Below are positions 1 to 33,375 of a DNA stretch of 36,403 nucleotides, piece by piece. The stretch spans positions 1-36,403 of the forward strand of contig JAJTIB010000012.1 in assembly GCA_021300075.1 (NCBI GenBank), given 5' to 3'. The notes beneath the pieces are model-generated. The model searched no databases and was not told the origin of the DNA. It worked only from the letters and a program-made list of their open reading frames with translations. This DNA comes from Rickettsiales bacterium. Lineage in GTDB: Bacteria > Pseudomonadota > Alphaproteobacteria > Rickettsiales > UBA3002. The first letter of the stretch is position 1. Every line of letters begins with the position of its first letter. Both the position numbers and the translations under genes were made by a program.

Positions 1-25
1 ACCAACTGTCCCGCAAGCGGCTCTA

Positions 26-45: not shown

Positions 46-67
46 CGGGCGCAAATAGTCACAAATT

Positions 68-96: not shown

Positions 97-161
97 GAAA
101 ATGTGGCGGTGAGGTTGTCGCGGTGGTTTGTAAGAGGTTGTCATTTATCAATAAAAACCGC

Positions 162-4387: not shown

Positions 4388-4915
4388 TTAAGAAGCGGGA
4401 TGGATGATAAACGTCACCACACCATGCACCTTGAGTTCTTCACCTTCTTTGATGAGAATCGGGTCATAGTTGGGATTTTCTGGCACCAGCATGATGTGGC
4501 CGTTTTGACGGAACAGACGTTTCACGGTGAGTTCACCATTGAGCGATACGATCACGATGTCTTTATGCTCGGGCAGTTTCGCGGTATCCACCACCAGCAC
4601 GTCATCTTCTTTGATGCCTGCATCCACCATTGAATCACCCGATACGCGCACCAGGTAGGTGGAATCAGGGGCTTTCACCATCAGTTCGTTCAGATCAATC
4701 GTGTCATCCACATGGTCTTCGAGCGGCGTGGGAATCCCAGCGGGAATGCGGGAAGAATACATCGGGACTTTGTATCCCTTGTTTTCCACATACCTACACA
4801 CATCCCCTAATAGGCTAAGTGGAATGCGAACTGGTTTTGTCGTTTCACCAAAGCGTCCCTGGCCTTTTGGTCTTCCTGCGCCTTTGCGTTTACCGCCGTG
4901 CGGTGTAGTTGACAC
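4388..4915 (-). CDS. S24 family autopeptidase (UmuD/LexA-like), probable SOS-cleavable prophage repressor with a non-HTH N-terminus
   Basis: - C-terminal domain aligns by eye to UmuD: Ala-Gly cleavage site (RIPAGIPTP), Ser nucleophile in SGDSMVDAGI, Lys in LTVKRL.
- The ~50-aa N-terminus is Gly/Arg/Lys-rich (GGKRKGAGRPKGQGR) with no recognisable HTH.
- GTG start. Confidence 0.75.
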   Translation of the reverse strand: MSTTPHGGKRKGAGRPKGQGRFGETTKPVRIPLSLLGDVCRYVENKGYKVPMYSSRIPAGIPTPLEDHVDDTIDLNELMVKAPDSTYLVRVSGDSMVDAGIKEDDVLVVDTAKLPEHKDIVIVSLNGELTVKRLFRQNGHIMLVPENPNYDPILIKEGEELKVHGVVTFIIHPAS

Positions 4916-5815: not shown

Positions 5816-5826
5816 TGTTCGAACAT
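5815..5826. promoter_or_regulatory. Palindrome ATGTTCGAACAT (copy 4), candidate operator upstream of a promoter-like sequence
   Basis: Perfect 12-bp palindrome overlapping the last base of the 262-aa gene's stop codon. It lies 6 bp upstream of the TTGAAA -35-like hexamer. Confidence 0.5.
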
Positions 5827-5831
5827 GTTAG

Positions 5832-5859
5832 TTGAAATTTAACCACACTCAGTTATGAT
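5832..5859 (+). promoter_or_regulatory. Candidate promoter TTGAAA-N16-TATGAT at the left edge of the metal island
   Basis: TTGAAA at 5832-5837 and TATGAT at 5854-5859. The predicted start site falls near the ATG at 5867 (MKKVIL...), so the mRNA could be leaderless or have a very short leader. Confidence 0.3.
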
Positions 5860-6187
5860 GCGTGTCATGAAAAAAGTTATTCTTTCACTATTTATTGCTC
5901 TTTCGCTGCTTGTTGCGCCCATCGCACATGCTGCTGGCATGAATTGTGAGGGCGATAACTGCCAGATGACTGAGCAATCGAAGAAACAGTCCAAGAGCGA
6001 AAAGCAGGATGATGGCAAAATGGCTAATGCTGGTCACCACTGCTGCTGCCCTCATGTATCTTCCATACCTAACCTGACTGTGGCTGAACCAATGAAAGTT
6101 TCCAGCCGCACGGTTTTCGTTCTTGAGCAGGATGCCACAACATCCGTAGTGGTCGGACCACCACTCAAACCACCCTCCCACGCTTAA
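5855..6187 (+). CDS. Small secreted Cys/His-containing protein (CzcI-position protein)
   Basis: - Signal peptide MKKVILSLFIALSLLVAPIAHA.
- HHCCCPH cluster.
- C-terminal LKPPSHA.
- It sits directly upstream of the OMF gene, as czcI does in the Cupriavidus czc operon.
- The real start may be the ATG at 5867. Confidence 0.6.
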   Translation: MMRVMKKVILSLFIALSLLVAPIAHAAGMNCEGDNCQMTEQSKKQSKSEKQDDGKMANAGHHCCCPHVSSIPNLTVAEPMKVSSRTVFVLEQDATTSVVVGPPLKPPSHA

Positions 6188-6288
6188 TTCCATAAAGCAG
6201 GCTTGCGCCTGAAAGAGTGCCTATCCAGGTGCTCTGAGGTCGCATGTCCTTTTGTATTTATCCAAGGAATTAAGTGTGAGAACTCCCG

Positions 6289-7617
6289 ATGCCAAACCCA
6301 TATAAGCTCCCCGTGTGGCTGCTCTGCGCCACCATGCTAACCAGTGCGCCTGCTTACGCTGAACCAGAAAAGCAAACCGACACACCGCCACCTGCTGCTG
6401 TGGCTGCACCTATGAAGGCCGCTGGCTTTTCGCTGGATGATGCGATTGCCAAGGCACTCGTACAGTCCCCACGTTTGAAAGCCTTCGGCAGTGGCGTTGC
6501 GGCTGCAAAGGGAGAACAGCGGCAAGCTGGGGCATGGGTAAACCCCGAAGTAGGTGTGGAAGCGGAGAACGTTGCGGGTCAAGGTGCATATAAAGGCTTC
6601 GACTCGGCGGAAGTGACGGTTGGGGTCACGCAGGAAATTACCATCGGCGGGAAGATTTCGGCACGGGAGAGCATTGCGGGTAAAGGGCTGGAAATCGCTT
6701 CGCTCGATGAACAGGCCGCAACACTAGATGTTATCCGTGATGTTACCACCGCCTATGCGGATGTGGTGGCAGCAGAAGAAAATGTGCGCCTTGCCACCGA
6801 GCAGAAAGAGCTGGCTGTGGATGTACTGAAATCTGTAAGCGTGCGCGTGGGAGCAGCCGCTGCGCCGTTGATTCAGAAAAGCCGTGCAGAGGTGGAACGC
6901 TCCACTGCCACCATCGCGCTTGATAAGGCGAACCGTGAGCGTGATATTTCCCGCAAAAAACTGGCCGCACTGATGGGAGAAGAACGCTTCACCCTTCCGC
7001 TTGATAGCGCGGCGTTCTATGCCATTGCAAAGCCAGAGGCTGCATCGCTGGAAGAAAAGCTGAAAGCCAACCCTGATCTGGTGAAGCTGAATAGCAGCTT
7101 GGAGCAATCGAAAGCACGGCTGGAACTGGAACAAGCCAATGCCATTCCTGACCCGCGTTTGAGCGTGGGCCTGCGCGACTTCCGTGATAGCGGCGATCAG
7201 GCATTTATCGTTGGCGTGTCGCTGCCCATCCCCGTGTTCAATGCCAATCGTGGTAATATCGAGAAAGCGCGGCACGAGGTCAGCCGCACGGAAATGGATA
7301 ACCGCCAGCTGGCACTCAACACTAGCGCGGATTTAACACAGGCGCATGAGCGTATGGAAAACGCCTATGTGCAGGCAGAAACACTCAAAACCGAGATTTT
7401 ACCTTCCGCCGATAAAGCCTTTCGGCTGGCGCGGGAGGGCTACGGCTTAGGACGTTTCCCCTACCTCGAAGTGCTTGACGCGCAGCGTAGCCTGTTTGGG
7501 GTAAAACAACAGCAGATCGAAGCGATACGCGAATTTCATACCGCCAAGGCGCAAGTGGAACGGTTGACCGCCACACGCCTCAGCGCATTACAAAAATCAG
7601 GAGAGAACCATGAATAA
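6289..7617 (+). CDS. czcC: Outer membrane efflux factor, TolC/CzcC family
   Basis: 442 aa with a signal peptide. It has the two-repeat helical/beta-barrel OMF pattern, sits first in the RND tripartite operon, and overlaps the adaptor gene start. Confidence 0.8.
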   Translation: MPNPYKLPVWLLCATMLTSAPAYAEPEKQTDTPPPAAVAAPMKAAGFSLDDAIAKALVQSPRLKAFGSGVAAAKGEQRQAGAWVNPEVGVEAENVAGQGAYKGFDSAEVTVGVTQEITIGGKISARESIAGKGLEIASLDEQAATLDVIRDVTTAYADVVAAEENVRLATEQKELAVDVLKSVSVRVGAAAAPLIQKSRAEVERSTATIALDKANRERDISRKKLAALMGEERFTLPLDSAAFYAIAKPEAASLEEKLKANPDLVKLNSSLEQSKARLELEQANAIPDPRLSVGLRDFRDSGDQAFIVGVSLPIPVFNANRGNIEKARHEVSRTEMDNRQLALNTSADLTQAHERMENAYVQAETLKTEILPSADKAFRLAREGYGLGRFPYLEVLDAQRSLFGVKQQQIEAIREFHTAKAQVERLTATRLSALQKSGENHE

Positions 7618-8734
7618 GCGCAACCTCATTATATTAACACTGCTGCTGGCCATTGCTGGCGGGGCATATCTCACGCTTGGCGGGGATGCAAAAGAACCCG
7701 CAGCGGAGAATCATGCCCCCGCTGATAAAGACGAGCATGGCCACGGCGATGAGCATAAAGATGACCATGCCGAAGGCGGCGATCACGGGCATGGTGACAA
7801 GGATGAACACGCGCACGGCGATGAACATGGCCACGACCATGCGGAAGCCAAACCTGCTGCCGATGAACATGGCGAAGCCGATGAGCATGGGCATGGCGGT
7901 GAAGAAGGCGGTCATGATGAAGGAAGCAAAATCAGCGACAATGCGGTGAAGAACCTGAATATCGAGATTCTGCAAGCTGGCAGCGCGATGGTGCGGGAAA
8001 CCGTCAGCGTCAGTGGCCGCGTAACCCTGAACCAGAACACTACCGCGCAAGTGAAAGCCCGCTTCCCCGGTGTAATTCGCAGTGTGCTGAAAGAACCTGG
8101 TGAAGTGGTCAAAGCTGGCGACACGCTGGCAACGGTGGAGAGCAACGACAGTCTACAAGTCTATGCGGTGAAGTCACCTGTTACTGGCACTATCATCACT
8201 CGCAATGCCAGTGTCGGTGAACTGGCGGCGGATACGCCATTATTTGCGGTGGCGGATTTAAGCAAGCTGTGGGCGGAGTTGTTCATTTTCTCGAAAGATG
8301 GCGAGAGGCTGAAAGCTGGCCAGAAAGTCCGCATCCAGTGCCTTGATGATCCCGTGAATACCGAGTCCTCCATTGCGCTGGTGCTGCCTACCGCAGAAGC
8401 CTCAAGCCAGACGGTAGTGGCGCGTGCGGTGATCGAGAATGCCGATAACCACTGGCGTTCGGGCATGAATATCCGCGGCGATGTTGTGCTGTCGGAAAAA
8501 GAAGCCCCGCTTGCCGTGAAAACCGAAGCTATCCAGCGCATGGAAGGCAACGCGGTGGTGTTTGTGCGCGAAGATGGCGGCACTTACAAAGCGCAGCCCG
8601 TGGAAACTGGCATGAGCGATGCGACGTGGACGGAAATCAAAAGCGGCCTCACGGCTGGCCAGCATTACGTCGCTAAAAACAGCTTCGTGGTGAAAGCCGA
8701 CATCGGCAAATCCGGTGCGGAACACGAACACTAG
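7610..8734 (+). CDS. czcB: RND periplasmic adaptor (membrane fusion protein) with His-rich N-terminal region
   Basis: N-terminal anchor, then about 70 aa of HGHGDEH-type repeats. After that come the typical MFP lipoyl and beta-barrel segments (GDTLATVES...VKSPVTGTI). Confidence 0.8.
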   Translation: MNKRNLIILTLLLAIAGGAYLTLGGDAKEPAAENHAPADKDEHGHGDEHKDDHAEGGDHGHGDKDEHAHGDEHGHDHAEAKPAADEHGEADEHGHGGEEGGHDEGSKISDNAVKNLNIEILQAGSAMVRETVSVSGRVTLNQNTTAQVKARFPGVIRSVLKEPGEVVKAGDTLATVESNDSLQVYAVKSPVTGTIITRNASVGELAADTPLFAVADLSKLWAELFIFSKDGERLKAGQKVRIQCLDDPVNTESSIALVLPTAEASSQTVVARAVIENADNHWRSGMNIRGDVVLSEKEAPLAVKTEAIQRMEGNAVVFVREDGGTYKAQPVETGMSDATWTEIKSGLTAGQHYVAKNSFVVKADIGKSGAEHEH

Positions 8735-8752
8735 AATCTAGGGGATAGAGCC

Positions 8753-11700
8753 ATGATTGAACGTATTTTAGGGTTTTCCCTTCATCACCGATACCTAATC
8801 GCACTGCTTACATTGGCGGTGGCGGTGTTCGGTATGTACTCACTTAAAAATCTGCCGATTGATGCCGTGCCAGACATCACCAACAATCAGGTGCAGATCA
8901 ACACCGTTGCCTCCGCGTTTTCGCCGATGGAAGTGGAAAAGCAGGTGACATTCCCCGTGGAAACCGCACTGGCGGGTATTCCTGGTCTTGAATATACCCG
9001 CTCGATTTCACGCAACGGATTTTCTCAGGTGACTGCCGTATTCCGCGATGACGTGGATATTTATTTCGCACGCGCTCAGGTGAATGAACGTATTGCGGAA
9101 GCAAAAGAGAGTCTGCCTGAAGGCGTTGACCCGAAGATGGGCGCAATCTCGACTGGCCTTGGCGAAATTTACATGTGGACGGTGGAATATGAACAGCCAC
9201 GCGGCAAAGGCGCAGACATAAAAGATGGCAAGGCTGGCTGGCAATCCGATGGTAGCTACCTCACGCCCGAAGGCCAGCGCATGAACTCGGATGTCGAACT
9301 GGCTTCCTACCTCCGCACGGTGCAGGACTGGATTATCCGCCCTCAGCTGAAAGGCGTGAAGGGTGTGGCGGGTGTCGATGCGATTGGCGGCTATGTGAAG
9401 CAATACCATGTGCAGCCTAACCCTGAAAAACTGGTGGCGCTTGGCCTGAGTTTCTCGGATGTGGTCAATGTACTGGAGCGCAACAATACCAGCATTGGTG
9501 CAGGCTACATCGAGCGCAGCGGCGAAGCCTATGTGGTGCGTGCGGATGGGCGTATCGAGAATGCCGAGCAGATCGGTAATATCGTGGTGGCTAACCGTGG
9601 CGGTGTTACCATTTATTTGAAAGACATCGCTACCGTTGGCATCGGCAAGGAACTCCGCACGGGTTCGGCTTCTGAGAATGGCTATGAAGTTGTGGTTGGC
9701 ACGGCGCTCATGCTGATTGGCGAGAATAGCCGCACCGTATCGCAAGCGGTGGACGAGAAGATCACGGAGATTAACAAGTCGCTGCCCGAAGGTATCCACG
9801 CCAAAACGGTGTTGAATCGTACCAATCTAGTAGATCGCACCATCGGCACGGTGCAGACGAACCTCATCGAAGGCGCGTTGCTCGTCATCGTGATTCTGTT
9901 TTTATTGCTGGGTAACTTCCGCGCCGCGCTGATTACTGCGCTCGTCATACCGCTTTCCATGCTCATGACCAGCATGGGCATGATTCGCGCTGGCATCAGC
10001 GGCAACCTCATGAGCCTTGGTGCGCTCGATTTCGGGCTGATTGTAGATGGCGCGGTGATTATCACTGAGAATTGCCTGAGCCGCTTGGCGCACCGCCAGC
10101 ACCATGAAGGCAGGATACTGACCCTGCAAGAACGCTTGCATGAGGTGATGGTGGCCAGCCGTGAGATGATTCAGCCTTCTGTGTTCGGTCAGGCGATTAT
10201 CATCATGGTGTATATCCCGCTGCTGACATTCAGCGGTGTGGAAGGCAAGATGTTCGAGCCGATGGCGATGACAGTGATTTTTGCCCTGATTGCTGCATTT
10301 GTGCTGTCCCTAACTTTTGTTCCCGCCATGATTGCCATTTTTGTGAAAGGCAACGTGGAGGAAAAAGAAAGCCGCATTATCCAAAAAACCAAAGGCTGGT
10401 ATGAACCCGCTTTGCATTGGGCATTGCGTTCGCCGCTGAAAATCATCGGCGCGGCAACGGGTGGTTTTGTGCTCTCACTCGTGCTGTTTTCCACGATGGG
10501 GCAAGAATTTATTCCGACGCTCGATGAAAAAGACATCGCCATGCACGCGATGCGGATTCCTTCTACTTCGCTCACGCAGTCGCAGGAATTGCAATTTGCC
10601 GTGGAAAAAGCAGTGAGTAGCGTGTCGGAAGTAAAGTTTGTTTTCTCTAAAACTGGCACGGCAGAAATGGCTGCTGATCCGATGCCGCCCAACGTATCCG
10701 ACACGTTCATTATCCTGAAAGACAAAGACCAGTGGCCTGATTCCAGTATCGAAAAGTCAGAAATTATTGCGAAAATAAACAAGGCTGTATCTGATGTTCC
10801 AGGGAACAACTACGAATTCACCCAACCGATTCAGATGCGTTTCAACGAACTGATTTCGGGCGTGCGTTCCGATGTGGCAGTGAAGATTTACGGCGATGAC
10901 TTCGGCGTGATGGAGAAAACCGCCGCCCAGTTGGTGCAAACGCTGAAATCCGTTGAAGGCAGCGCGGATGTGAAGATGGAGCAAACCAGCGGCCTTCCCA
11001 TGCTGGAAGTGAAGCTGGATAAAAACGCCATCTCCCGTTATGGCCTGAACGTCAGCGATGTGCTGGATGTGCTTTCGATTGCAGTGGGTGGGCGCGAGGC
11101 TGGCTTGGTGTTCCAAGGGGATCGCCGCTTCGATATTCTGGTACGCTTGCCAGATACCATGCGGCAAGACCTCACCGTGTTGGAAAACCTGCCCGTGTTA
11201 CTTCCTGTCGATGATGACAATATGGCCGACCGCATTGGTGGCCAACCACACACGCGCCCAGCCTATATCCCCCTCAAGCAGGTGGCGAAGCTGGAAATCA
11301 CCGACGGGCTAAACCAAATCAGCCGTGAAAACGGCAAACGCCGCATGGTGGTTCAAGCCAACGTGCGTGGGCGTGACATCGGCTCGTTCGTGAAAGACGC
11401 GCAAGCCGCTATCGGCAGCAAGGTAGAGATTCCCGCTGGCTACTGGCTGGAATGGGGTGGGCAGTTCAAAAACCTTGAAGAAGCCAAGGCGCGGCTCGGT
11501 GTTGTAGTTCCCGCCTGCTTCTTCATGATTTTCCTACTGCTGTTCACTGCACTCGGCTCGGTCAAACAAGCCTTGCTGGTGTTTTCTGGTGTGCCGCTGG
11601 CACTCACGGGCGGCATTATCACCCTCTGGTTGCGCGGTATGCCGTTCTCTATTTCGGCGGCGGTGGGCTTGATTGCGCTTTCAGGTGTGGCCGTGCTGAA

Positions 11701-12001
11701 CGGGCTGGTGATGATTACTCGCATCAACCAGCTGGTGCGTGAAGGTATTGAGGCGAACACGGCCATTATCGAAGGTGCGCTTTCCCGCTTCCGCCCCGTA
11801 CTGATGACCGCGCTCGTTGCTTCCTTGGGCTTTGTGCCGATGGCGATTGCCACTGGTGCTGGCGCGGAAGTGCAAAAACCACTGGCGACAGTGGTGATCG
11901 GCGGATTGATTACCGCAACCATCCTTACGTTGCTGGTGCTGCCCGCCATTTACAAACGGTTCAACCTCGCCCGCGACCTGCTAGCGAAGGAGATACTGTG
12001 A
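8753..12001 (+). CDS. czcA: Heavy-metal efflux RND transporter, CzcA-type
   Basis: 1082 aa with 12-TM RND architecture. The TM4 motif DFGLIVDGAVIITEN matches the divalent-cation HME pattern DFG-DGA-(V)EN, not the CusA/SilA pattern A-x5-D-x6-EN. Confidence 0.85.
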   Translation: MIERILGFSLHHRYLIALLTLAVAVFGMYSLKNLPIDAVPDITNNQVQINTVASAFSPMEVEKQVTFPVETALAGIPGLEYTRSISRNGFSQVTAVFRDDVDIYFARAQVNERIAEAKESLPEGVDPKMGAISTGLGEIYMWTVEYEQPRGKGADIKDGKAGWQSDGSYLTPEGQRMNSDVELASYLRTVQDWIIRPQLKGVKGVAGVDAIGGYVKQYHVQPNPEKLVALGLSFSDVVNVLERNNTSIGAGYIERSGEAYVVRADGRIENAEQIGNIVVANRGGVTIYLKDIATVGIGKELRTGSASENGYEVVVGTALMLIGENSRTVSQAVDEKITEINKSLPEGIHAKTVLNRTNLVDRTIGTVQTNLIEGALLVIVILFLLLGNFRAALITALVIPLSMLMTSMGMIRAGISGNLMSLGALDFGLIVDGAVIITENCLSRLAHRQHHEGRILTLQERLHEVMVASREMIQPSVFGQAIIIMVYIPLLTFSGVEGKMFEPMAMTVIFALIAAFVLSLTFVPAMIAIFVKGNVEEKESRIIQKTKGWYEPALHWALRSPLKIIGAATGGFVLSLVLFSTMGQEFIPTLDEKDIAMHAMRIPSTSLTQSQELQFAVEKAVSSVSEVKFVFSKTGTAEMAADPMPPNVSDTFIILKDKDQWPDSSIEKSEIIAKINKAVSDVPGNNYEFTQPIQMRFNELISGVRSDVAVKIYGDDFGVMEKTAAQLVQTLKSVEGSADVKMEQTSGLPMLEVKLDKNAISRYGLNVSDVLDVLSIAVGGREAGLVFQGDRRFDILVRLPDTMRQDLTVLENLPVLLPVDDDNMADRIGGQPHTRPAYIPLKQVAKLEITDGLNQISRENGKRRMVVQANVRGRDIGSFVKDAQAAIGSKVEIPAGYWLEWGGQFKNLEEAKARLGVVVPACFFMIFLLLFTALGSVKQALLVFSGVPLALTGGIITLWLRGMPFSISAAVGLIALSGVAVLNGLVMITRINQLVREGIEANTAIIEGALSRFRPVLMTALVASLGFVPMAIATGAGAEVQKPLATVVIGGLITATILTLLVLPAIYKRFNLARDLLAKEIL

Positions 12002-12030
12002 TTTTTTCAACCAACCCTAAAGGAGACTCT

Positions 12031-12291
12031 ATGACCGACCTGAAATCCCTGCTTGCTGCATCTGCCCTCGCGCTAGTGATTGGTACTGCCGCACCTGCCA
12101 TTGCTGGCGAACACAAAGCTGAAGATGGCAAGAAGATGGAAAAGCACGAACACAAAGACGGTGACCATAAAGATCACGGCAAGCATGAAGGTCATAAAGA
12201 TGGCGATCATCACGACCACAAGGAAGGCGATGGTCACGATCATGATAAGGAAAAAGCTGGCAAGCCCGAAGCAAAAAGCAAAGGCCAGTAA
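12031..12291 (+). CDS. Secreted His/Asp/Lys-rich small protein (putative periplasmic metal-binding)
   Basis: RBS AAAGGAGA before the ATG at 12031. Signal peptide MTDLKSLLAASALALVIGTAAPAIAG. Mature part built of HKDGDH/HEGHKDGDHHDH repeats. Confidence 0.6.
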   Translation: MTDLKSLLAASALALVIGTAAPAIAGEHKAEDGKKMEKHEHKDGDHKDHGKHEGHKDGDHHDHKEGDGHDHDKEKAGKPEAKSKGQ

Positions 12292-12383
12292 ATGAATACG
12301 GCCAGAGGCATGGTGCTTCTGACCGTAGGTGCGACGGGAAGGAACAAGTTTAGCGACATGACCTTCCCGCCGCGCTCCCCAAA

Positions 12384-12402
12384 CCTGACGGGTTTCGTCA
12401 GG
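12384..12402 (+). terminator. Weak hairpin CCTGACG-GGTTT-CGTCAGG after the His-rich gene
   Basis: 7-bp perfect stem, but the trailing sequence (AATGTTTA) is only weakly T-rich. Confidence 0.25.
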
Positions 12403-12430
12403 AATGTTTAACCATTCTATAGGTAGAACC

Positions 12431-12865
12431 ATGAAAAAAGCTATAATCATCAGCACAGCACTGATACTTTTATCAGCTTGTGCATCTCAACCACCCCAAA
12501 CACTCGACCAAAAACTATCTGAGTCCACCACCGCAGCCGACCGAAAAGAAACGCTGCGTCTAGCGTGCCTGAATGAAGCGGAGTGGCCAGCGAGCTTGCA
12601 AAAGGTTCGTACCACTGGACGGCACGGCACGCAACAACGCCAACGTCTGAAGCGCACGCCCGAAATCAGAGAAATGAAAACGCTCTGCCGCCAGATGGAC
12701 GATCTCACCACGGTTGATGCGGAAGAAAAGCTGCCGCCAAAAGAGCTTGCTTCCGCATGCGCTGCCAAAGTTGCGGATAAAAAGCAGAAAGAAGGCAAAG
12801 GCTGGGCTGAACATGCAGACCGCATCGCGCATATCTGCAAGGAAATGACAGGTAAAAAACTGTGA
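12431..12865 (+). CDS. Hypothetical lipoprotein
   Basis: Lipobox LILLSAC at the N-terminus (MKKAIIISTALILLSACAS). Five further Cys. The stop overlaps the GTG start of the CDF gene (GTGA). Confidence 0.55.
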   Translation: MKKAIIISTALILLSACASQPPQTLDQKLSESTTAADRKETLRLACLNEAEWPASLQKVRTTGRHGTQQRQRLKRTPEIREMKTLCRQMDDLTTVDAEEKLPPKELASACAAKVADKKQKEGKGWAEHADRIAHICKEMTGKKL

Positions 12866-13470
12866 GTTCCTGCCACGACCATTGCAATGCCAGCGAGCAA
12901 TCAGACGTATCCGCAGCTTACCGCAAGGTGCTATGGGTATGTTTGATTGCCAACGCGGTGATGTTCGTGGCGCAAATGGTGGCAAGCTATGCCGCGCACT
13001 CTGTTTCACTGCTGGCTAATAGCGCAGATTTCTTCTCGGACGCTGCGAATTACGGCATAAGCCTCTATGTCTTGAATCTATCCCTGCGCCAGAAAGCCAA
13101 AGCCTCGCTGTTTAAGGGCGTTAGTTTGGGCTTAGTGGGGCTTTGGGTGGCGTTTGAGACGTTGCACCACGCGCTACAACCCGAACTACCAGAACCCCTT
13201 ATTATGGCCGCTATCAGTGTGGTGGCGTTGGCCGTAAATGTCGGCTGTGCAATGCTTCTCTACAAATACCGTGGTGGCGATAGCAACCGAGAATCGGTTT
13301 GGATTTGCAGCCGTAACGATGCCATCGGCAATATCGCCGTGATGATCGCCGCAGCTGGCGTGTTCGCTTCTGGCACCATCTGGCCAGATATTATCGTCGC
13401 CGCCATCCTAGGCTGGTTGGCGATCAGCGGCGCGATGCGAATTATTAAATCAGCTAAAAGAGAGCTATAA
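12862..13470 (+). CDS. Cation diffusion facilitator family transporter, transmembrane domain only
   Basis: - 202 aa with about six hydrophobic segments.
- CDF-like TM2 and TM5 motifs (SLLANSADFFSDAANY; NDAIGNIAVMIAA).
- N-terminal CHDHC.
- No ~80-100-aa C-terminal cytoplasmic domain. Confidence 0.7.
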   Translation: MSSCHDHCNASEQSDVSAAYRKVLWVCLIANAVMFVAQMVASYAAHSVSLLANSADFFSDAANYGISLYVLNLSLRQKAKASLFKGVSLGLVGLWVAFETLHHALQPELPEPLIMAAISVVALAVNVGCAMLLYKYRGGDSNRESVWICSRNDAIGNIAVMIAAAGVFASGTIWPDIIVAAILGWLAISGAMRIIKSAKREL

Positions 13471-13537
13471 AAAAGCCCCGAACCCAATATGATTTCCAAA
13501 TCCTACAAAAAAATTGAATCGTAATGAATGCCAAAAG

Positions 13538-13558
13538 ATGAAAACATTTGAAAAACAT
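13538..13558 (+). promoter_or_regulatory. Direct repeat ATGAAAACAT / TTGAAAAACAT upstream of the cop module
   Basis: Two GAAAA(A)CAT units about 10-11 bp apart in an AT-rich intergenic region. This is the layout used by OmpR-family response regulators. No match to a known cop/cus box is claimed. Confidence 0.2.
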
Positions 13559-13582
13559 AAAATAAAGCCTACAATCTATCCT

Positions 13583-13966
13583 ATGAAAATCTTCGTCAGC
13601 ATATTTATGGTTCTGGCACTCGTTATGACAACGAGCTTTCCTGCCACGTCCCATGCGATGATGCCTCATGATTCTGCGAAAGTAGAAAAAGCTGAAGCCT
13701 CCTCAGAACACGGTGATTGTCACAAGCACGCTAAGGCCGAGCAATCCGATAAAACGGCACAGAACGATAAAGAATCTGGCAAATGCTGTGATAAAGGTAT
13801 GTGCAAGTGCATCGGAAGCACCTGTCATAGCGGTCTGTCGAAGATTTTTGGTAATGGCAGCGAATCCCTCTTTCGTTTGACTGCCAGCAAAAGCAGCTTC
13901 GGCTTCACCAATGATGTGGTGGAATCCGCGCTTTCCAATCGCTTAAAACGCCCTCCCAAAGCCTAG
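13583..13966 (+). CDS. Small secreted Cys-rich protein (second member of the CzcI-position-like pair)
   Basis: - Signal peptide MKIFVSIFMVLALVMTTSFPATSHA.
- Lys/Glu/Gln-rich spacer.
- Cluster CCDKGMCKCIGSTCH.
- C-terminal LKRPPKA.
- Directly upstream of the multicopper oxidase gene. Confidence 0.6.
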   Translation: MKIFVSIFMVLALVMTTSFPATSHAMMPHDSAKVEKAEASSEHGDCHKHAKAEQSDKTAQNDKESGKCCDKGMCKCIGSTCHSGLSKIFGNGSESLFRLTASKSSFGFTNDVVESALSNRLKRPPKA

Positions 13967-14036
13967 TCCTGTAGCTGTTACGCCACCAGTGCGCCTTCGC
14001 GCATGGTGTCATTTCAACACAAATCAAGGATTAGTT

Positions 14037-15662
14037 ATGCGAACACATCATCTTGGGATGATGGCGTTGCTGATGGTAGGGTTTCTAGCCACTCCTGCAC
14101 ACGCCAAAACATCCGAATACTCGCTTACGATTGAGCAGCTTCCTGTAAACATTACAGGCAAACCAATCGAAAAAATCACCGTGAATGGGAGCATACCAGC
14201 CCCCACGCTTCGCTTCACCGAAGGCGATGAAGCGGTGATCCACGTCACCAATAAAATGGATGAACCCACCTCAATCCACTGGCATGGCCTGCTACTGCCC
14301 GACGCAATGGACGGTGTAACAGGTTTTGGAGGCTATAAGGCGATAGAGCCAGGTACGACCTTTACCTACCGTTTCCCCGTAAGGCAAACTGGCACCTATT
14401 GGTATCACTCGCACACCAGCGGTCAGGAACAGGACGGGCTTTATGGCTCGATCATCACTTCGCCTAAAGGCAAAGACCCGATAGCGGCGGATCGTGATTA
14501 TGTCGTCGTGCTTTCCGATTTCTCGGAGGAGCATTCCAGTGACATCATGGCGAACCTCAAAATGTCATCGGATTACTACGCCAATGCACGACTTACGGTG
14601 GGTGATTTTTTCAAAGATGTCAGCAAGAGCAGTTTAGGCAAGGCGTGGAAGGATGCCAAAGATTGGGGCGATATGCGGATGATGCGTACCGACCTTGCTG
14701 ATGTCACGGGCTATACGTTCCTCACCAATGGCAAATCGCCAGCACAAAACTGGACGGGTATTTTTAAGCCAGGTGAGAAAGTTCGCCTTCGCTTCATTAA
14801 CGCCTCTGCCATGTCTTTCTTCGATGTACGGATTCCTGGACTGAAGATGAGCGTGGTGCAAGCCGATGGTCAGGGCATCGAGCCCGTTACAGTAGATGAG
14901 TTTCGCTTTGCACCTGCGGAAACCTACGATGTAATTGTCACGCCGAAGGATGACAAAGCCTACACCATCGCCGCCGAACCAATTGACCGCACGGGCTTTG
15001 CCATTGGCACGCTGGCAACCGCTGAAGGCATGAAAGGTGAAATCCCGCCAGCTCGTCCCCGCGCATTGCTCTCTATGGGCGATATGAACATGGAGATGAT
15101 GATGAAGGACGACCCCGATATGGAAATGACTCCTGCCGATATGATTAGCGGCTGGGCAAAAACGGGAACGCCTGAAGGTCAGAAAGCTCTTTCATACGCT
15201 GATCTGCGCTATGTAGGCGTGCAAAAAGACCAACGCCAGCCGCAGCGCAACATCGACGTGCGTTTGGGCGGTAATATGGAACGCTACATCTGGACGATTA
15301 ACGAGAAGAAATTCTCGGAGGCCGAACCCATCCGCCTGAAATATGGCGAGCGGGTGCGGCTTTCCTTCACCAACGAAACCATGATGGCGCACCCGATGCA
15401 CCTGCATGGAATGTTCGTGCAGTTGGAAAACGGCCAGCCTGCGGCGAAGCTGCCCAACAAGCACACGGTGATTGTGCCGCCTGGGGGCTCTTACTCTGTG
15501 CTGGTGACGGCGGATGAAATCGGCGAGTGGGCGTTCCACTGCCATCTGCTCTACCACATGGCCAGCGGCATGATGCGTCAGGTCGTTGTCGCAAAGCTAG
15601 ACGCAGCGGATATGCCTGCCAGCACCGAAACCAAAACTAGCGGAGGTAACCATGCACATTAA
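14037..15662 (+). CDS. pcoA: Copper-resistance multicopper oxidase (CopA/PcoA family)
   Basis: Copper-site motifs HWHGL, WYHSH, HPMHLHG and HCHLLYHMASGMM. Met-rich segment (MGDMNMEMMMKDDPDMEM). RBS AAGGA before the ATG at 14037. Confidence 0.85.
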   Translation: MRTHHLGMMALLMVGFLATPAHAKTSEYSLTIEQLPVNITGKPIEKITVNGSIPAPTLRFTEGDEAVIHVTNKMDEPTSIHWHGLLLPDAMDGVTGFGGYKAIEPGTTFTYRFPVRQTGTYWYHSHTSGQEQDGLYGSIITSPKGKDPIAADRDYVVVLSDFSEEHSSDIMANLKMSSDYYANARLTVGDFFKDVSKSSLGKAWKDAKDWGDMRMMRTDLADVTGYTFLTNGKSPAQNWTGIFKPGEKVRLRFINASAMSFFDVRIPGLKMSVVQADGQGIEPVTVDEFRFAPAETYDVIVTPKDDKAYTIAAEPIDRTGFAIGTLATAEGMKGEIPPARPRALLSMGDMNMEMMMKDDPDMEMTPADMISGWAKTGTPEGQKALSYADLRYVGVQKDQRQPQRNIDVRLGGNMERYIWTINEKKFSEAEPIRLKYGERVRLSFTNETMMAHPMHLHGMFVQLENGQPAAKLPNKHTVIVPPGGSYSVLVTADEIGEWAFHCHLLYHMASGMMRQVVVAKLDAADMPASTETKTSGGNHAH

Positions 15663-16386
15663 GCACTTACTAATGGCACTCAGCCTCACCACTGCGCTTG
15701 CACAGCCTGCATTCGCGGTGGATCATTCTGCCCACGCAGATATGGCCGCAGAGCATGGTGGCGGTATCTTCCACATGTTTCGGCTGGAAACCGATGTTGG
15801 CAGCAATACCGATGGAACGCCGCTTCAAAGCTGGGACTTAGATGGCTGGATCGGCACGGATGAAAACAAACTCTGGATAAAATCAGAGGGTGAGCGTGCC
15901 GATAACAAGCTGGAGAGTGCAGAGTTTTGGGCACTCTATAGCCGCAACATCTCGACATTTTGGGATGCACAGGCAGGTATTCGTTACGATACCAAGCCTG
16001 AATCCACCGCGTACCTGACGCTTGGGTTAAACGGCCTTGCTCCATACTGGTTTGAAACGGAAGCTCATTTATTCGTGAGTGAACATGGCGATGTCACGGC
16101 GCGGCTGCGGCAGGAAAACGACCTCCTGCTAACACAAAAACTGATTTTGCAGCCTTATGTTGAAGTCAATCTCTCGGCGCAGGATGTCCACGAGCAGGAC
16201 ATTGGCGCAGGCGTACCCGACGGCAAGATAGGTCTACAAACACGCTACGAATTCACCCGAAAATTTGCGCCGTATGTGGATGTCCACTATGGCCGAAAAT
16301 TTGGGGAAACCTCATCCATCGCTAAAAGCCATGGCGAGGATAATGACGAATTAGTCGGCTCAATAGGGCTTCGACTGATGTTTTAA
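15652..16386 (+). CDS. pcoB: Copper resistance protein B (CopB/PcoB outer membrane family)
   Basis: 244 aa with a signal peptide and beta-strand-rich, aromatic-ended repeats, ending ...GLRLMF. It is translationally coupled to the oxidase gene (GGAGG RBS inside the oxidase 3' end). Confidence 0.75.
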   Translation: MHIKHLLMALSLTTALAQPAFAVDHSAHADMAAEHGGGIFHMFRLETDVGSNTDGTPLQSWDLDGWIGTDENKLWIKSEGERADNKLESAEFWALYSRNISTFWDAQAGIRYDTKPESTAYLTLGLNGLAPYWFETEAHLFVSEHGDVTARLRQENDLLLTQKLILQPYVEVNLSAQDVHEQDIGAGVPDGKIGLQTRYEFTRKFAPYVDVHYGRKFGETSSIAKSHGEDNDELVGSIGLRLMF

Positions 16387-16412
16387 CAATCAACAACCTA
16401 AAGGAAAATCTC

Positions 16413-17069
16413 ATGAAAAAGCTATTACTGACTACCGCCATGATATTGGCAACCACACCTGTATTCGCGGCTGAATTCACCATCAAGGAAGTCACGGATT
16501 ATGATGCGAAGAAGCAAAACTTCTTCTCACCTGATAAGCTGACTATCCAGCCTGGTGATACTGTCACGTTTGAAAACGTGCAGGATGAAGCACATCAGGT
16601 GATGTTTGTGAGCGTTCCCAAGGGCGTGGATGAAATGATTATGTCACCGATGCAGGAAAAGAAAGGCGACAAGTTCACCTACACTTTCACCGTGCCTGGA
16701 ACCTATAAATATCACTGCCACCCGCATGAAGCACTCGGCATGGATGGGGTGCTGATTGTGGGTGCGCCTTCAAAAGCAGGTGAAACCAAAAATGTGGATC
16801 ACCACAAGCTGACAAAAAAACTGGAAGGTGCTGAAGCCGCAGGAGGCGTTGCTGCCACTGGCAAGGTGGTGAGCGCAGACGCAGCAAAAAACACCATCAA
16901 AATCAAGCATGACCCGATCAAGTCGCTTGGCTGGCCTGTGATGACGATGACGTTCACTGCCGATAATGGTGTTAATCTTTCTACCTACAAGGAAGGTGAT
17001 GCCGTGTCCTTCACGCTGAAACCAGCAGGCAAGGATGATTACACGATTTCTACTATCAAAAAGAACTAA
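16413..17069 (+). CDS. Cupredoxin (plastocyanin/pseudoazurin-like) fused to a CusF-like copper-binding domain
   Basis: Signal peptide. Type-1 copper motif YKYHCHPHEALGMDG with an upstream His. The C-terminal 70 aa align by eye to E. coli CusF (IKIKHDPIKSLGWPVMTMTF vs ITIHHDPIAAVNWPEMTMRF). Confidence 0.7.
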   Translation: MKKLLLTTAMILATTPVFAAEFTIKEVTDYDAKKQNFFSPDKLTIQPGDTVTFENVQDEAHQVMFVSVPKGVDEMIMSPMQEKKGDKFTYTFTVPGTYKYHCHPHEALGMDGVLIVGAPSKAGETKNVDHHKLTKKLEGAEAAGGVAATGKVVSADAAKNTIKIKHDPIKSLGWPVMTMTFTADNGVNLSTYKEGDAVSFTLKPAGKDDYTISTIKKN

Positions 17070-17092
17070 CCACCAACCAAAGGAGAATTGCT

Positions 17093-17440
17093 ATGAAGAA
17101 AATTATCGCATTAATATTTGCCACTATTATCGGCATCTTTTCAATGAGTGCTTATGCAGAAACTAGCTTACTTAAAAAAGTCGAATCGCAATATGTTTGT
17201 ATGATTAACAACAAGCTGTTCGATAAAGTTCAGATTCCTACTAGTGTAAACGGAAAGACATATTACGGCTGCTGCCCGATGTGCAAAGAGAAGTTGGAAA
17301 AGAGTTCGGAAGCACGCAGCGCAACTGATCCAGTAAGTAATAAGCGAGTCGATAAAGCCTCGGCAATAATTGGCGCAGAGGCTGATGGTACAATTCATTA
17401 TTTTGAAAACGAAACCAATCTAAAACTCTACAAAAAATAA
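17093..17440 (+). CDS. Secreted YHS/TRASH-like domain protein
   Basis: Signal peptide. C-x22-C-C-x2-C arrangement (CMINNKLF...GKTYYGCCPMCKEKL) typical of YHS-type metal-binding domains. Confidence 0.55.
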   Translation: MKKIIALIFATIIGIFSMSAYAETSLLKKVESQYVCMINNKLFDKVQIPTSVNGKTYYGCCPMCKEKLEKSSEARSATDPVSNKRVDKASAIIGAEADGTIHYFENETNLKLYKK

Positions 17441-17504
17441 TTTTACCGAGTGAATCTTCACTTTAACCTTGGATTAACCGACTAACCAACCAAAGGAGAT
17501 TGTT

Positions 17505-17894
17505 ATGTTTAAGAAATTATTGCCTATCGTTATGCTCATTTTTGTAGCCGCATGTTCTAATACGCAAGGTGGTTCAATGTCTGGCATGGATATGAAAATG
17601 CCATGTTGTGAAAAATGCGAGTGCTGTAAGGATGGGAAATGCGGTGAGTGCTGCAAATCTGGCGAATGCAAGTGCTGTAAAGAAGGCATGTGTAAAATGT
17701 GCATGGGTAAAATGGAAGGCATGTCTTCCATGAAAGAAGGAATGCAATGCCCAATGATGAAAAATGGCGCAAAAGATGGCAAGCCATGCGGATGCTGTGG
17801 GGGTATGATGAAGGACGGAATGAATATGAAGTCCTCTCCCGCACCTAAAACAACGAGTGATGCAGATCACAAAGCCCATCATCCACAACAGTAA
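17505..17894 (+). CDS. Cys/Met-rich lipoprotein (metallothionein-like, exported)
   Basis: Lipobox IFVAAC. The mature part has repeated CC-K-x-G-x-C units (CCEKCECCKDGKCGECCKSGECKCCKEGMCKMC), many Met, and a C-terminal His-containing tail. Confidence 0.65.
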   Translation: MFKKLLPIVMLIFVAACSNTQGGSMSGMDMKMPCCEKCECCKDGKCGECCKSGECKCCKEGMCKMCMGKMEGMSSMKEGMQCPMMKNGAKDGKPCGCCGGMMKDGMNMKSSPAPKTTSDADHKAHHPQQ

Positions 17895-17907
17895 CAGGAG
17901 CAACTAG

Positions 17908-18156
17908 ATGACACAGCAACATGACCATTCCAAATGTGGGCATAAAAGCCTGAACTGGTTTTACTCCCATAAAGCTGCATCCTTTGCTCTTATACTCGTA
18001 GCGGTGCTACTGGTTATAGAGCATTGGCAGCACTTGATTTATGCGCTTCCTTATCTGCTTTTGCTGTCATGCCCATTGATGCACTTATTTATGCATCATG
18101 GTCACGGCGGACATGGTACACATGCCCATAACGAAACAAAGGTAGATAAAGAATGA
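17908..18156 (+). CDS. Small membrane protein, DUF2933-like
   Basis: 82 aa with two TM segments and the motif [21 protein letters not shown] recall this pattern from DUF2933 proteins that sit next to copper ATPases. The stop overlaps the ATPase start. Confidence 0.55.
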
Positions 18157-20345
18157 AACACGAAGGTCACTACTGTCATCACGAACATCATGCCAGCCCT
18201 GTAGCTGTTTCACCAGAAGCAGCACAGGGCGAAGGTGTGATGTACACTTGCCCTATGCACCCGCAGGTTAGGCAACCCAAGCCTGGTAATTGCCCGATCT
18301 GCGGAATGGCATTGGAGCCAGAAAAAGTTTCACTGGATGCTGCGCCTAATCATGAACTGATAGATATGACGCGGCGGTTTTGGGTGTCGGCGATTTTGGC
18401 TGCGCCGCTGGCGTTATTCGTCATGGGCGCACATCTACTTCCGAACATTCCGCACGAATGGATGGATTCACCGCTTTCGCATTGGCTCCAAATGCTGGTG
18501 GCAACACCCGTAGTGCTGTGGGGCGGCTGGCCGTTTTTTGTGCGTGCGGTAGATTCCGTTCGTCACCGCAGCCTCAATATGTTTACACTGATCGCGCTGG
18601 GTGTCGGCGTGGCTTATATCTACAGCCTTATCCTCGTATTATTTCCGCAAGCGGTCGCACAATTCTCCGGCGGCATGATGCTGGATGTATATTTCGAGGC
18701 GGCAGCGGTTATCACAGCTCTGGTATTGCTGGGACAAGTGCTTGAGCTTAAAGCCCGCGAGCAATCCAGCAACGCGATGCGGGCATTGCTTGATCTCGCT
18801 CCGAAGATGGCGCGAATCATCCGCGCTGATGGCAAAGAAGAAGATGTGCCATTATCGGAAGTGCATAAAGGCGATGTGCTGCGTGTTCGCCCTGGAGAAA
18901 AAATACCAGTGGATGGGATTGTAATCGTTGGCCATAGCAGTGTCGATCAATCCATGCTCACTGGCGAATCCGTTCCTGTGGAAAAAAGCGCAGGCGATAA
19001 GGTGACGGGCGCAACGCTCAATGGCACGGGTGGCTTCACCATGCGTGCCGAGCGCGTGGGTAATGAAACCATGCTGGCGCAGATCGTGGATATGGTGGCC
19101 AAAGCCCAGCGCACCCGCGCACCGATTCAGCGTATGGCGGATAAGGTATCGGGCTATTTCGTACCAATTGTCGTGCTGGTGGCAATTCTTACTGCCGCTG
19201 CATGGTTTATATGGGGACCAGAACCGAAACTGGCCTATGCCATCGTTAATGCTGTAGCCGTGTTGATTATTGCCTGCCCCTGTGCGCTCGGCCTTGCTAC
19301 GCCCATGTCTATCATTGCAGGCACTGGTCGTGGCGCAATGGCAGGCGTATTGATTAAAAACGCCGAGTCGCTCGAAATCATGGAAAAGGTTGATACGCTG
19401 ATTATCGACAAAACTGGCACGCTGACCGAGGGTAAGCCGAAGCTCATGGAAGTTGTTGTCGCTTCTGGCTTTGACCAAAATGAAGCCCTGCGGTTGGTCG
19501 CCAGCCTTGAACAAAGCAGCGAACATCCACTGGCATCGGCCATTGTCAAAGGCGCACAGGAAAAAGGCATTACGCTTTCTACTGTGCAGAATTTTTCCTC
19601 TACCACTGGCAAAGGCGTACAAGGCACGGTGGGTGGTCATAATGTCGCGCTGGGAAATGCGGCAATGCTAACTTCACTTGGCATGAATGCTGATTCGCTT
19701 GTGCAAGCTGCCGATCAGCTCCGAGCTAAAGGACAAACCGCTATGTTTGCAGCGATTGATGGCAAACCAGCGGCGATTATCAGTGTTGCCGACCCGATCA
19801 AGGCCACCACCCCCGAAGCATTGAAACAGCTAAAAGCCGAAGGATTGCATATCGTGATGCTCACTGGCGACAGCAAAGCCACCGCGAAAGCAATTGCGGA
19901 GCAGCTGGGCATAGATGACTATGAAGCCGAAGTGCTGCCAGAACGCAAAAGCGAGCTGGTGCGGCAATTACAGGAAAAAGGCCGCAAGGTCGCAATGGCG
20001 GGTGATGGGGTGAATGATGCGCCTGCATTAGCGCAAGCGCATGTCGGCATTGCGATGGGAACTGGCACCGATGTCGCGATGGAAAGCGCAGGCGTTACAC
20101 TGGTGAAAGGTGATTTGATTGGCATCGTTCGCGCCCGTCGCTTGAGTCATGCCACGATGAGTAATATCAGGCAGAACCTATTCTTCGCATTCGTCTATAA
20201 TGCGCTGGGCGTGCCTGTTGCCGCTGGCTTGCTCTATCCATTCTTCGGATTGCTTCTAAGCCCCGTGATTGCCAGTGCAGCAATGGTACTGAGTTCGGTG
20301 TCGGTGATTATGAACTCGTTACGACTCAGAAAAGTTAAATTGTAA
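18153..20345 (+). CDS. copA: Cu(I)/Ag(I)-translocating P1B-type ATPase
   Basis: - Motifs CPC ([13 protein letters not shown]), DKTGT and [10 protein letters not shown].
- TM7 YN...P and TM8 [12 protein letters not shown], the P1B-1 Cu(I) signature.
- The N-terminus has a CPMHP...CPICGM metal-binding module instead of a GMTCxxC HMA domain. Confidence 0.9.
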
Positions 20346-20787
20346 TGTTTGCCTTGTAAGCTAGTGATTCCGCGTTCCTCCGTTTCACAAGCCCCTTGAG
20401 CTTGCGGCCACCAGCCCACACCCATTTCATGAGTTCGGCAGGCACATCGGCATGTTCTTCGCGGTTTACCTTACGGCGGAGCGTGGAGCGTTGAAGCGCA
20501 CCTGCGCCGAGGTTGAAGGTAAACGACACCAGCGCATCGAACTGCCCCTGCGTGAGTGGCACGCTAATCAGGCGTAGCACGGCGCGTTCTGCGACCGCCA
20601 CATCCTGACGGAGCAGATCGAGGGCTTCGTCCTCGTCTACCCCATCCAGGAATTGCTCTTTGTTGGCTTCGGTAACCAGGTGACCATAGCCAATCGTGGG
20701 ATACCCCGCTGGACACATGTAAATGATCGGCGAAAACCCCTCAAAGCGGCAAATCAGGTCAAGCCCTTGTCTGGAAATATGTCTCAT
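20335..20787 (-). CDS. Endolysin, GH24 (T4/P1-lysozyme family)
   Basis: RFEGF...[14 protein letters not shown] with an E-x8-C-x5-T catalytic spacing. The start at M33 of the tracked ORF overlaps the holin stop (ATGA). Confidence 0.8.
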
Positions 20788-22962: not shown

Positions 22963-22965
22963 GGT

Positions 22966-23837: not shown

Positions 23838-23847
23838 AAATGAATCC

Positions 23848-33366: not shown

Positions 33367-33375
33367 AACACCTCC

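Follow-up and report, generated by a model that had tools for sequence, protein, structure and literature searches.

A 14.5-kb multi-metal resistance island, most probably carried as cargo by a temperate prophage of freshwater Alphaproteobacteria

Metal-resistance islands are usually credited to plasmids, transposons and integrative and conjugative elements (ICEs). Here we describe a contig of 36,403 nucleotides from a Rickettsiales bacterium (GenBank assembly GCA_021300075.1, contig JAJTIB010000012.1; ‘the window’ denotes this whole stretch) in which a metal-resistance island of 15 plus-strand open reading frames (ORFs), across 5855–20345, lies between genes of a tailed phage. To the left of the island are a tRNA-Ser remnant, genes for a serine integrase, a replication protein and an S24 peptidase, and a conserved gene for a 262-residue protein; to its right are an endolysin gene, a lysis cassette and tail genes (Table 1). 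Judged by sequence comparison, the window is very probably the integrase-proximal 36 kb of a temperate prophage of siphovirus type, ~46 kb long, whose hosts are freshwater Alphaproteobacteria. The phage combines a lambda-type GpA terminase and a tail resembling that of gene transfer agents (GTAs) with a large serine integrase that inserts at the 3′ end of tRNA-Ser genes. We put at roughly 85% the probability that a single mobile prophage truly carries the island as cargo.

Every one of the 15 island ORFs ends in a single terminal stop in translation, and all lie on the strand opposite to the minus-strand late genes. The island is a composite of 14.5 kb, or ~31% of the prophage genome when coordinates are taken from aligned copies. 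A preliminary description of this DNA had reported 15 co-directional metal genes that fill the interval up to the endolysin and face against the late operon, and the ORF, strand and domain analyses agree with it. Family models likewise back its assignments of an RND system, a CDF protein, a multicopper oxidase with CopB, a cupredoxin–CusF fusion, a DUF2933 protein and a P1B ATPase; what it had called a YHS protein has a weak TRASH match that scores below the Pfam cut-off. Domain searches of the 15 ORFs found no transposase, integrase, conjugation gene, two-component system or MerR-type regulator. The earlier statement that the island lacks transposases and integrases thus stands, whereas the statement that it lacks a metal regulator holds for two-component and MerR-type proteins but overlooks a CopL-family ‘metal-binding regulatory protein’, which scores at the family cut-off. 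Four other small island ORFs encode signal or lipoprotein peptides and Cys/His-rich stretches, and matched no family in Pfam and NCBIfam searches. Among PLSDB plasmids, the island was matched by weak fragments of 72–80% identity only.

The first half of the island carries an outer-membrane factor, a periplasmic adaptor and a CusA/CzcA-family pump in one operon, as expected of a CzcCBA-type exporter; the CzcI-like protein, the His-rich periplasmic protein, the 144-residue lipoprotein and the short CDF complete this divalent-cation module. Hints of its substrate come from the best family matches, which are sub-threshold hits to IhpA and IhpB of a divalent-metal exporter, and from a DFG...DGA...EN motif in the translated pump. 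As in the czcCBA/IhpABC systems of Cupriavidus and Bradyrhizobium, the genes run in the order C-B-A, the pump scores above the CusA/CzcA cut-off and a small secreted protein is encoded upstream in the position of czcI; this protein had no family match in profile searches. In contrast to those systems, there is no czcRS, no full-length czcD-type CDF gene and no czcN, the IhpA and IhpB models score below their equivalog cut-offs, and the operon is phage-borne. The adaptor gene contains six copies of a repeat spaced at 18 nt (family D1, 7729–7901), which give the protein a stretch rich in His, Asp and Glu close to its N-terminus, probably a metal-binding extension. In an exact-protein look-up, the CzcA protein stands in phage context wherever flanks exist, and, among exact matches, the czc half as a whole occurs in phage context only.

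The second half forms the copper module. It joins a CopA-type multicopper oxidase to CopB, as in Cop/Pco systems, and ends in an ATPase that passes the Cu(I) family cut-off, bears an N-terminal HMBD domain (PF19335) and has CPC and DKTGT motifs in its translation, as expected of a P1B-1 Cu(I) exporter. The CopL-like ORF probably starts at 13583, where it opens with a signal peptide. Its succession of CopL-like protein, CopA oxidase and CopB resembles copLAB of Xanthomonas, copABCD of Pseudomonas and pco of Escherichia coli. Unlike in these systems, CopC, CopD and CopRS domains were found in none of the 15 ORFs, with the CopL-family protein there instead, and the oxidase and CopB genes are joined to cupredoxin–CusF, DUF2933 and P1B-ATPase genes, as in two chromosomal loci (L179 and L180). 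The DUF2933–ATPase pair also occurs in chromosomal loci L178 and L179. The cupredoxin–CusF, TRASH-like, lipoprotein and DUF2933 genes form a sub-block of 43.8% GC (16413–18156). The TRASH-like gene is missing from a second island lineage, with a gap at 17110–17474 in the alignments of contigs L286 and L288, and chromosomal locus L179 has a 108-residue gene in its place. The low-GC sub-block and the variable presence of the TRASH-like gene show that the island itself is mosaic.

Both edges abut phage sequence with almost no spacer, as the preliminary description had said. The 262-residue gene runs to 5815, the first island ORF opens at 5855 (or 5867), and the ATPase stop codon (20343–20345) overlaps the 3′ end of the endolysin gene (20335) by 11 bp. 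Alignment with relatives places the true cargo boundaries at ~5837 on the left and 20346–20368 on the right: homology to chromosomal cop loci stops at 20314–20326 or the ATPase stop codon, and homology to phages begins at 20369. Because phage homology resumes within the last codons of the endolysin, the C-terminal tail of this protein is new and derives from the 23-nt junction. We found no flanking direct or inverted repeats pairing the 5.8-kb and 20.3-kb regions, and a repeat search found no att-type boundaries between the left and right phage blocks. A perfect 12-bp palindrome (ATGTTCGAACAT, 5815–5826) overlaps the stop codon of the 262-residue gene and is kept in all metal-island lineages and partly in relatives with type IIG cargo; it is not enriched in the window. 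Directly 3′ of it is a promoter-like TTGAAA-16-TATGAT (5832–5859), and a second promoter-like site lies within the CopL ORF region (13548–13575); both are consensus matches only. Each ends ~7 nt before the ATG of a signal-peptide-bearing protein, at 5867 (MKKVILS...) and 13583 (MKIFVSI...), such that transcripts from these two starts would be leaderless if the sites are real. No clear terminator was seen 3′ of the ATPase gene, which overlaps the endolysin gene.

Table 1 Features annotated in the window, in order of position, with the evidence for each assignment
Feature	Coordinates	Strand	Basis
tRNA-Ser(TGA), 3′ part from anticodon loop to CCA, no 5′ half	162–229	+	blastn to phage and host tRNA-Ser; alignment with full tRNA-Ser of L033, L035, L002
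Large serine recombinase (integrase), 503 aa	205–1716	-	phrog_95, E=7.6e-65; Resolvase and Recombinase Pfam domains
DUF6362 phage protein	2309–2737	-	phrog_6836; exact sequence in 244 blocks of public collection
Replication initiation protein, O-like/DnaD-like, DnaA_N	2734–3924	-	phrog_345, phrog_10469; PF11638
S24 peptidase protein, UmuD/LexA-like	4388–4915	-	PF00717; NF007621 UmuD 141.5 bits (cut-off 110)
262-aa conserved gene, left flank of cargo hotspot	5027–5815	+	same direction as cargo, divergent from S24 gene
Left junction zone	5815–5859	+	seven-lineage alignment, promoter scan, palindrome search; phage homology ends ~5836
Secreted protein, 106–110 aa, GHHCCCPH motif	5855–6187	+	translation; CzcI-like position upstream of czcC
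Outer-membrane factor, CzcC/IhpA-like	6289–7617	+	PF02321 (OEP), E=1.1e-48; IhpA best NCBIfam, sub-cut-off
Periplasmic adaptor, CzcB/IhpB-like, His/Asp-rich repeat region	7610–8734	+	PF16576, PF13437; TIGR01730 113.5 bits (cut-off 94.9)
HME-RND inner-membrane pump, CusA/CzcA family, 1082 aa	8753–12001	+	PF00873 1028 bits; TIGR00914 1544 (cut-off 701)
Secreted His-rich protein, 86 aa	12031–12291	+	translation; weak match to ZrgA region
Lipoprotein, 144 aa, no family match	12431–12865	+	lipobox LLSAC in translation
Short CDF, membrane domain only, 202 aa	12862–13470	+	PF01545 (Cation_efflux); TIGR01297 80.2 bits, just under cut-off 82.35
CopL-family metal-binding protein	13514–13966	+	NF033807 40.6 bits (cut-off 40)
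Copper-resistance multicopper oxidase, CopA/PcoA type	13989–15662	+	three Cu-oxidase Pfam domains; TIGR01480 675 bits (cut-off 479)
CopB outer-membrane copper resistance protein	15652–16386	+	PF05275, E=1.2e-73
Cupredoxin–CusF fusion, predicted periplasmic copper binding	16413–17069	+	PF00127 and PF11604
Secreted 115-aa protein, weak TRASH/YHS-like motif	17093–17440	+	PF08394, E=2.5e-4, below cut-off
Lipoprotein, 129 aa, no family match	17505–17894	+	translation
DUF2933 small membrane protein, coupled to ATPase	17908–18156	+	PF11666
Cu(I)-type P1B ATPase (CopA), MCE3005331.1	18153–20345	+	PF00122, PF00702, PF19335; TIGR01511 597 bits (cut-off 397)
Right junction, 23 nt	20346–20368	.	matches neither chromosomal cop loci nor island-less phages (alignments)
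Endolysin, 150 aa, right flank of hotspot	20335–20787	-	PF00959, phrog_7
Two small membrane proteins of lysis cassette, 141 and 75 aa	20784–21448	-	phrog_6637, phrog_37133; hydrophobic segments; function from position
Tail-fibre region: 475, 171, 119, 312 aa; DUF2793	21535–24786	-	PHROG tail-fibre matches; PF10983
Tail and head-proximal structural genes	24809–36398	-	PHROGs, Pfam

The order of integrase, island, lysis and tail genes recurs at 99.7–99.98% identity in more than 25 independent assemblies drawn from NCBI metagenome-assembled genomes (MAGs), JGI, ENA and Logan. Homology of these copies to the window begins at 156–190, and the exact endolysin protein stands beside the ATPase at 10 of the 10 places shown, from 23 contigs read. 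Contig JBKCYW010000060.1 (58.9 kb; L272, L033, L005) runs from a host flank to a DUF3768 gene in the order host genes, full tRNA-Ser(TGA), integrase, replication gene, S24 gene, 262-residue gene, island, lysis, tail and head genes, GpA terminase, two ParB_N genes and DUF3768. The rest of the virion module (capsid, portal and GpA terminase) is also present in contigs L004–L013. One might suspect that assembly or binning had joined a phage contig to a chromosomal metal locus, as the window is a MAG contig and some of the short contigs are interrupted close to the left junction (L001). Both junctions, however, are identical to the base in more than 25 assemblies, which were made from different samples and with different assemblers; such recurrence excludes a chimera, to which we attach practically no weight.

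The preliminary description had left the other prophage end to be located, and it can now be placed. Two derivatives of the element, L285 and L287, share common sequence to ~150 nt past DUF3768 and then continue into different host genes; together with the aligned copies, this far end gives a prophage length of ~46.1 kb. When metagenomes were scanned with DUF3768 to find this end, only distant relatives came up. No att-like repeat was found at the far end of contig L282, as expected for a serine integrase. At the near end, copies occupy several sites. The tRNA-Ser(TGA) site is filled in two unrelated host flanks (L272/L280 and L277), and the tRNA-Ser(GGA) site by copies 99.7% identical to the window (L278/L279). 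More divergent elements occupy tRNA-Ser(GCT) (L274/L286; 86–94% identical, with a 514-residue integrase) and tRNA-Ser(CGA) (L275; 86% identical, with a 557-residue integrase). Occupation of different tRNA-Ser genes in different neighbourhoods indicates separate integration events, and the presence of near-identical copies at different tRNA genes indicates that some moves were recent. Both flanks of the island come from one phage with one integrase, and phage and cargo are found together at different chromosomal sites, at 86–99.98% identity to the window.

Relatives carry other cargo at the same junctions. An IMG/VR contig, L042, is 95% identical to window positions 30669–20369; beyond that point it encodes the Gabija proteins GajB and GajA (PADLOC, 901 and 699 bits), together with a helicase, a T5orf172 protein and the terminal part of a type IIG enzyme. 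In four further contigs (L043, L044, L045 and L049) homology is also lost at 20369, with different downstream DNA in each. From the other side, L273 and L276 are 93–95% identical through the 262-residue gene and diverge at ~5837, where genes follow for an HTH_17 protein, a type IIG restriction-methylase (924 bits), AlbA_2 and T5orf172 proteins and a helicase. The more distant L122 diverges at ~5776 and has BrxA, BrxB, BrxC (1627 bits) and PglX (1421 bits) on the same strand, 3′ of its 262-residue homologue; thus, a homologue of this gene stands ahead of type IIG restriction-modification (RM) or defence cargo in both L273 and L276, and ahead of BREX in L122. The cargoes of L042 and L276, two contigs from different samples, overlap at 95%, which implies that the same pair of flanks is joined by ~11 kb of defence genes. 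We propose, at about even odds, that this widespread family of alphaproteobacterial temperate phages keeps a cargo bay of 10–15 kb, up to one-third of the genome, between the 262-residue gene and the endolysin, filled either by Gabija plus type IIG RM or BREX or by the complete two-system metal island.

These comparisons bear on the possibility that an ancestral chromosomal metal locus is flanked by what is left of two different elements, the left block (integrase to S24) and the right block (lysis to tail), a history that the preliminary description had named as fatal to its own proposal, along with att boundaries between the blocks. Prophage-flanked metal islands do exist, for example one of 85 kb in Xanthomonas euvesicatoria pv. 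perforans (PMC12864420). Close relatives of the copper half are found on chromosomes, and the island resembles its flanks in composition. Nevertheless, the integrase–island–lysis order is preserved at 99.7–99.98% identity beside different tRNA-Ser genes and host flanks, relatives join the same flanks by defence cargo, the two blocks add up to a full set of phage genes that includes just one integrase, and the island borders lack att-like repeats. The separate integration events exclude the two-remnant history, which we regard as highly improbable, and the multi-site copies together with the relatives’ other cargo argue instead for a cargo hotspot of one mobile phage. Examination of the phage flanks in relatives, one contig that runs from host to DUF3768, and multi-site copies and a repeat search that contradict both fatal outcomes thus leave the earlier placement of the island inside a prophage supported.

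Several observations count against regarding the island as cargo of a mobile phage. First, positions 1–161 of the window and its truncated tRNA differ from every other copy, all of which have a complete tRNA, and the contig ends before the head and terminase genes. Second, some copies (L285 and L287) are clearly defective. Third, no related phage was found in INPHARED, where near-mode searches gave no match for the late region and distant-mode searches with the left arm gave only tRNA and UmuD fragments; no island-bearing junction was found in IMG/VR, where an ATPase scan gave only ~10 distant matches, mostly at contig ends. Fourth, GC and codon usage, which the preliminary description had suggested profiling, do not discriminate, as the island has 52% GC and the phage arms 51% and 56%. 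Fifth, the S24 protein has no recognisable helix-turn-helix (HTH) domain and is closer to UmuD than to LexA or cI. Finally, the island contains no classical metal-responsive transcription factor, and its promoter-like matches are not above those in shuffled sequence (13 found, 15.4 expected).

Some of these points would also fit a single, real, prophage-derived island that no longer belongs to a functional phage and spreads by vertical descent, integrase-mediated excision or other non-virion routes. The decay of L285 and L287 with retention of the island, an insert of 14.5 kb that makes up 31% of the genome, the GTA-like tail genes and the absence of the island-bearing junction from IMG/VR viral contigs and INPHARED are all compatible with such a fate. 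Against it, every expected module is intact, both in the window and in the long contigs, near-identical copies at different tRNA genes speak of recent moves, and sister phages carry other cargo measured at ~11 kb. A complete BREX type 1 system is estimated at ~14 kb. With ~11 kb (measured) or ~14 kb (the BREX estimate) of cargo in sister phages, the present genome size appears normal for the family. We therefore consider loss of phage function unlikely as a general account, and favor carriage by a mobile prophage.

Other vehicles were considered and rejected. A phage-plasmid does not fit an element that is integrated at tRNAs and whose ParB_N proteins lie beside the terminase. A gene transfer agent of the RcGTA type was set aside on the basis of the integrase, replication protein, GpA-type terminase and multiple sites, only the tail genes being GTA-like. 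A transposon, ICE or integrative island as the vehicle would be expected to bring its own transposase, integrase, conjugation genes or terminal repeats, and none was found among the 15 ORFs or at the two edges.

Where the cargo came from is suggested by the copper half. Positions 13580–20326 have 81–88% nucleotide identity to chromosomal cop loci of alphaproteobacterial MAGs (L178, L179 and L180), which keep the order multicopper oxidase, CopB, cupredoxin/CusF, DUF2933 and ATPase and lie among housekeeping genes. The island was probably captured from alphaproteobacterial chromosomes, and phages have probably traded cargo through recombination within the conserved genes on either side of it. 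In the 88% identical locus of L179 (12752–18757), the ATPase gene is followed by a GTA-type Rcc01698-like tail gene (1228 residues) and a DUF2793 gene, the same families as in the phage tail-fibre region; this arrangement may hint at how phage and cop locus met. In the second lineage, the island is 86% identical to that of the window and the adjacent phage genes are 94% identical, a divergence which argues that the association of island and phage was not a one-off recent event. Derivatives also record what happens later. In L285 (12183–14336) the 5′ end of the endolysin gene is fused to the middle of a ParB gene, with loss of ~34 kb of structural genes; in L287 (14241–17908) a truncated tail protein is fused near DUF3768, with loss of ~18 kb. 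The two decayed independently, and in both the full island was kept and lies beside host genes. Retention of the island while phage genes are lost suggests that it is useful to the host.

We suggest the following working model. In the lysogen, the island, on the strand opposite the late genes and 3′ of the 262-residue gene, could be expressed while the lytic genes are off, an arrangement made possible by its orientation. Transcription would start from its own candidate promoters (5832 and 13548) or from the promoter of the 262-residue gene. The ATPase would move cytoplasmic Cu(I) to the periplasm, where the oxidase, CopB and the cupredoxin–CusF protein would oxidise and sequester copper, and the RND pump and CDF protein would expel cations of the Zn/Co/Cd type across both membranes, metal specificities that we infer. 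These proposed roles follow the established functions of the CopA ATPase, PcoA/CopA–CopB, CusF, CzcCBA and CDF families. Metals might be sensed by the CopL-like or CzcI-like proteins or by host regulators, and the sum would be lysogenic conversion to metal tolerance. Alternatively, the island could be a passive hitch-hiker that is silent in the lysogen or confers no measurable metal tolerance, as might be expected from the lack of a dedicated transcription factor, promoter evidence that consists of consensus matches only, and a CDF protein without a cytoplasmic domain. By contrast, none of the 15 ORFs is disrupted, lineages 86–99.9% identical have conserved the island, and it is retained when phage genes are deleted. 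Conservation and retention point to selection on the function of the island, and we think passive carriage quite unlikely.

Around the island, the phage genes offer some further detail. The tRNA-Ser remnant marks the integrase-proximal attachment region; ARAGORN and Rfam found nothing in the window. Positions 1–161 have no match in viral or metagenome contigs and one 80%-identical match to a GTDB MAG. Window positions 1–336 are 80.7% identical to a contig of the GTDB MAG Alphaproteobacteria bacterium UBA1002 (L177, 4575–4910), where genes for AbiEi/AbiEii, a LigB dioxygenase and a TRIC-type channel lie left of the matching stretch and one for a related 514-residue integrase lies right of it. 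At its left end, the window may thus hold a tandem insertion of another element into this tRNA’s anticodon loop. The S24 protein is best matched in the PDB by UmuD (1.4e-28), followed by LexA (6e-15) and lambda cI (4e-6). It has Ala59-Gly60, GDSM and VKRL in its translation, with the Ser and Lys residues kept, and a basic N-terminal extension of 59 residues with a GRP (AT-hook-like) motif precedes the Ala-Gly cleavage site. No umuC is adjacent to the gene. The cleavage site, the Ser and Lys residues and the basic extension make an SOS-cleavable regulator plausible. The earlier label ‘immunity module’ is overstated for a UmuD-like protein that lacks a recognisable HTH domain. The 262-residue protein had no Pfam, NCBIfam or PDB-sequence match, and a single-sequence AlphaFold model was unusable (pLDDT 35).

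On the right, the true start of the endolysin is at 20787, giving 150 residues, and not at 20883 (a 182-residue ORF). Positions 24809–36398 encode a GTA-type tail protein of 1239 residues, NlpC/P60, BR0599 and DUF2460 proteins, tape measure, chaperones, tube, terminator, head-tail and head decoration proteins. In relatives, the tail module has further small cargo insertions: DUF2188, an HTH/ImmA-IrrE (M78) protein and DUF3368 in L004 (17547–19672), and a TacA1/GNAT toxin–antitoxin pair and a 129-residue gene in L009 (13191–13580 and 15143–15929). Beyond DUF3768 lies a second variable spot, occupied by a PIN protein in L004 (1–159), by a 364-residue protein that appears TIR-like by eye in L123 (6005–7099), and by a Dcm-type methylase with an M78/HTH protein in L282 (5931–8830).

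The cargo and defence hotspots of temperate phages and satellites of the P2/P4 type, reportedly set out by Rousset et al. in 2022, share with the present locus a fixed slot between two conserved genes and unrelated multi-gene cargo in near-identical phages. Here, in contrast, the cargo is a 15-gene set for abiotic metal stress rather than for defence, occupies ~31% of the genome and is found in environmental Alphaproteobacteria. Metal-detoxification genes have been reported on viral contigs from contaminated soils, mostly as single genes on fragmentary contigs (PMC8240259, PMC13037928). Those studies likewise attribute metal resistance to lysogenic phages, whereas the present case comprises two complete multi-component systems in a resolved prophage with defined junctions, multiple sites and sister phages. 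The metal island of Xanthomonas A2-1 is flanked by prophages and does not lie inside one (PMC12864420). It and ICE-borne islands resemble ours in their multi-metal content and in being associated with mobile elements at tRNA genes, but ours lies between a phage’s own genes and has no integrase, transposase or conjugation genes of its own. A literature search found no resolved tailed prophage with complete RND and cop/ATPase systems. Cargo hotspots in temperate phages as such are established.

More broadly, metal resistance at the scale of 15 genes appears to travel with a virus: what looks like a complete prophage encodes two whole systems that span the cell envelope, one built on an RND pump and the other on a copper oxidase and ATPase. 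If the proposed cargo bay is real, metal-bearing phages would actively infect different hosts and spread the island, and later prophage decay would fix it in the chromosome, providing a phage route to ‘orphan’ metal-resistance islands. Confirmation of packaging and phenotype would mean that tailed phages move multi-operon abiotic-stress islands of ~15 kb and that defence hotspots double as slots for general adaptive cargo, and would trace a concrete path by which phage cargo becomes an island fixed in the chromosome.

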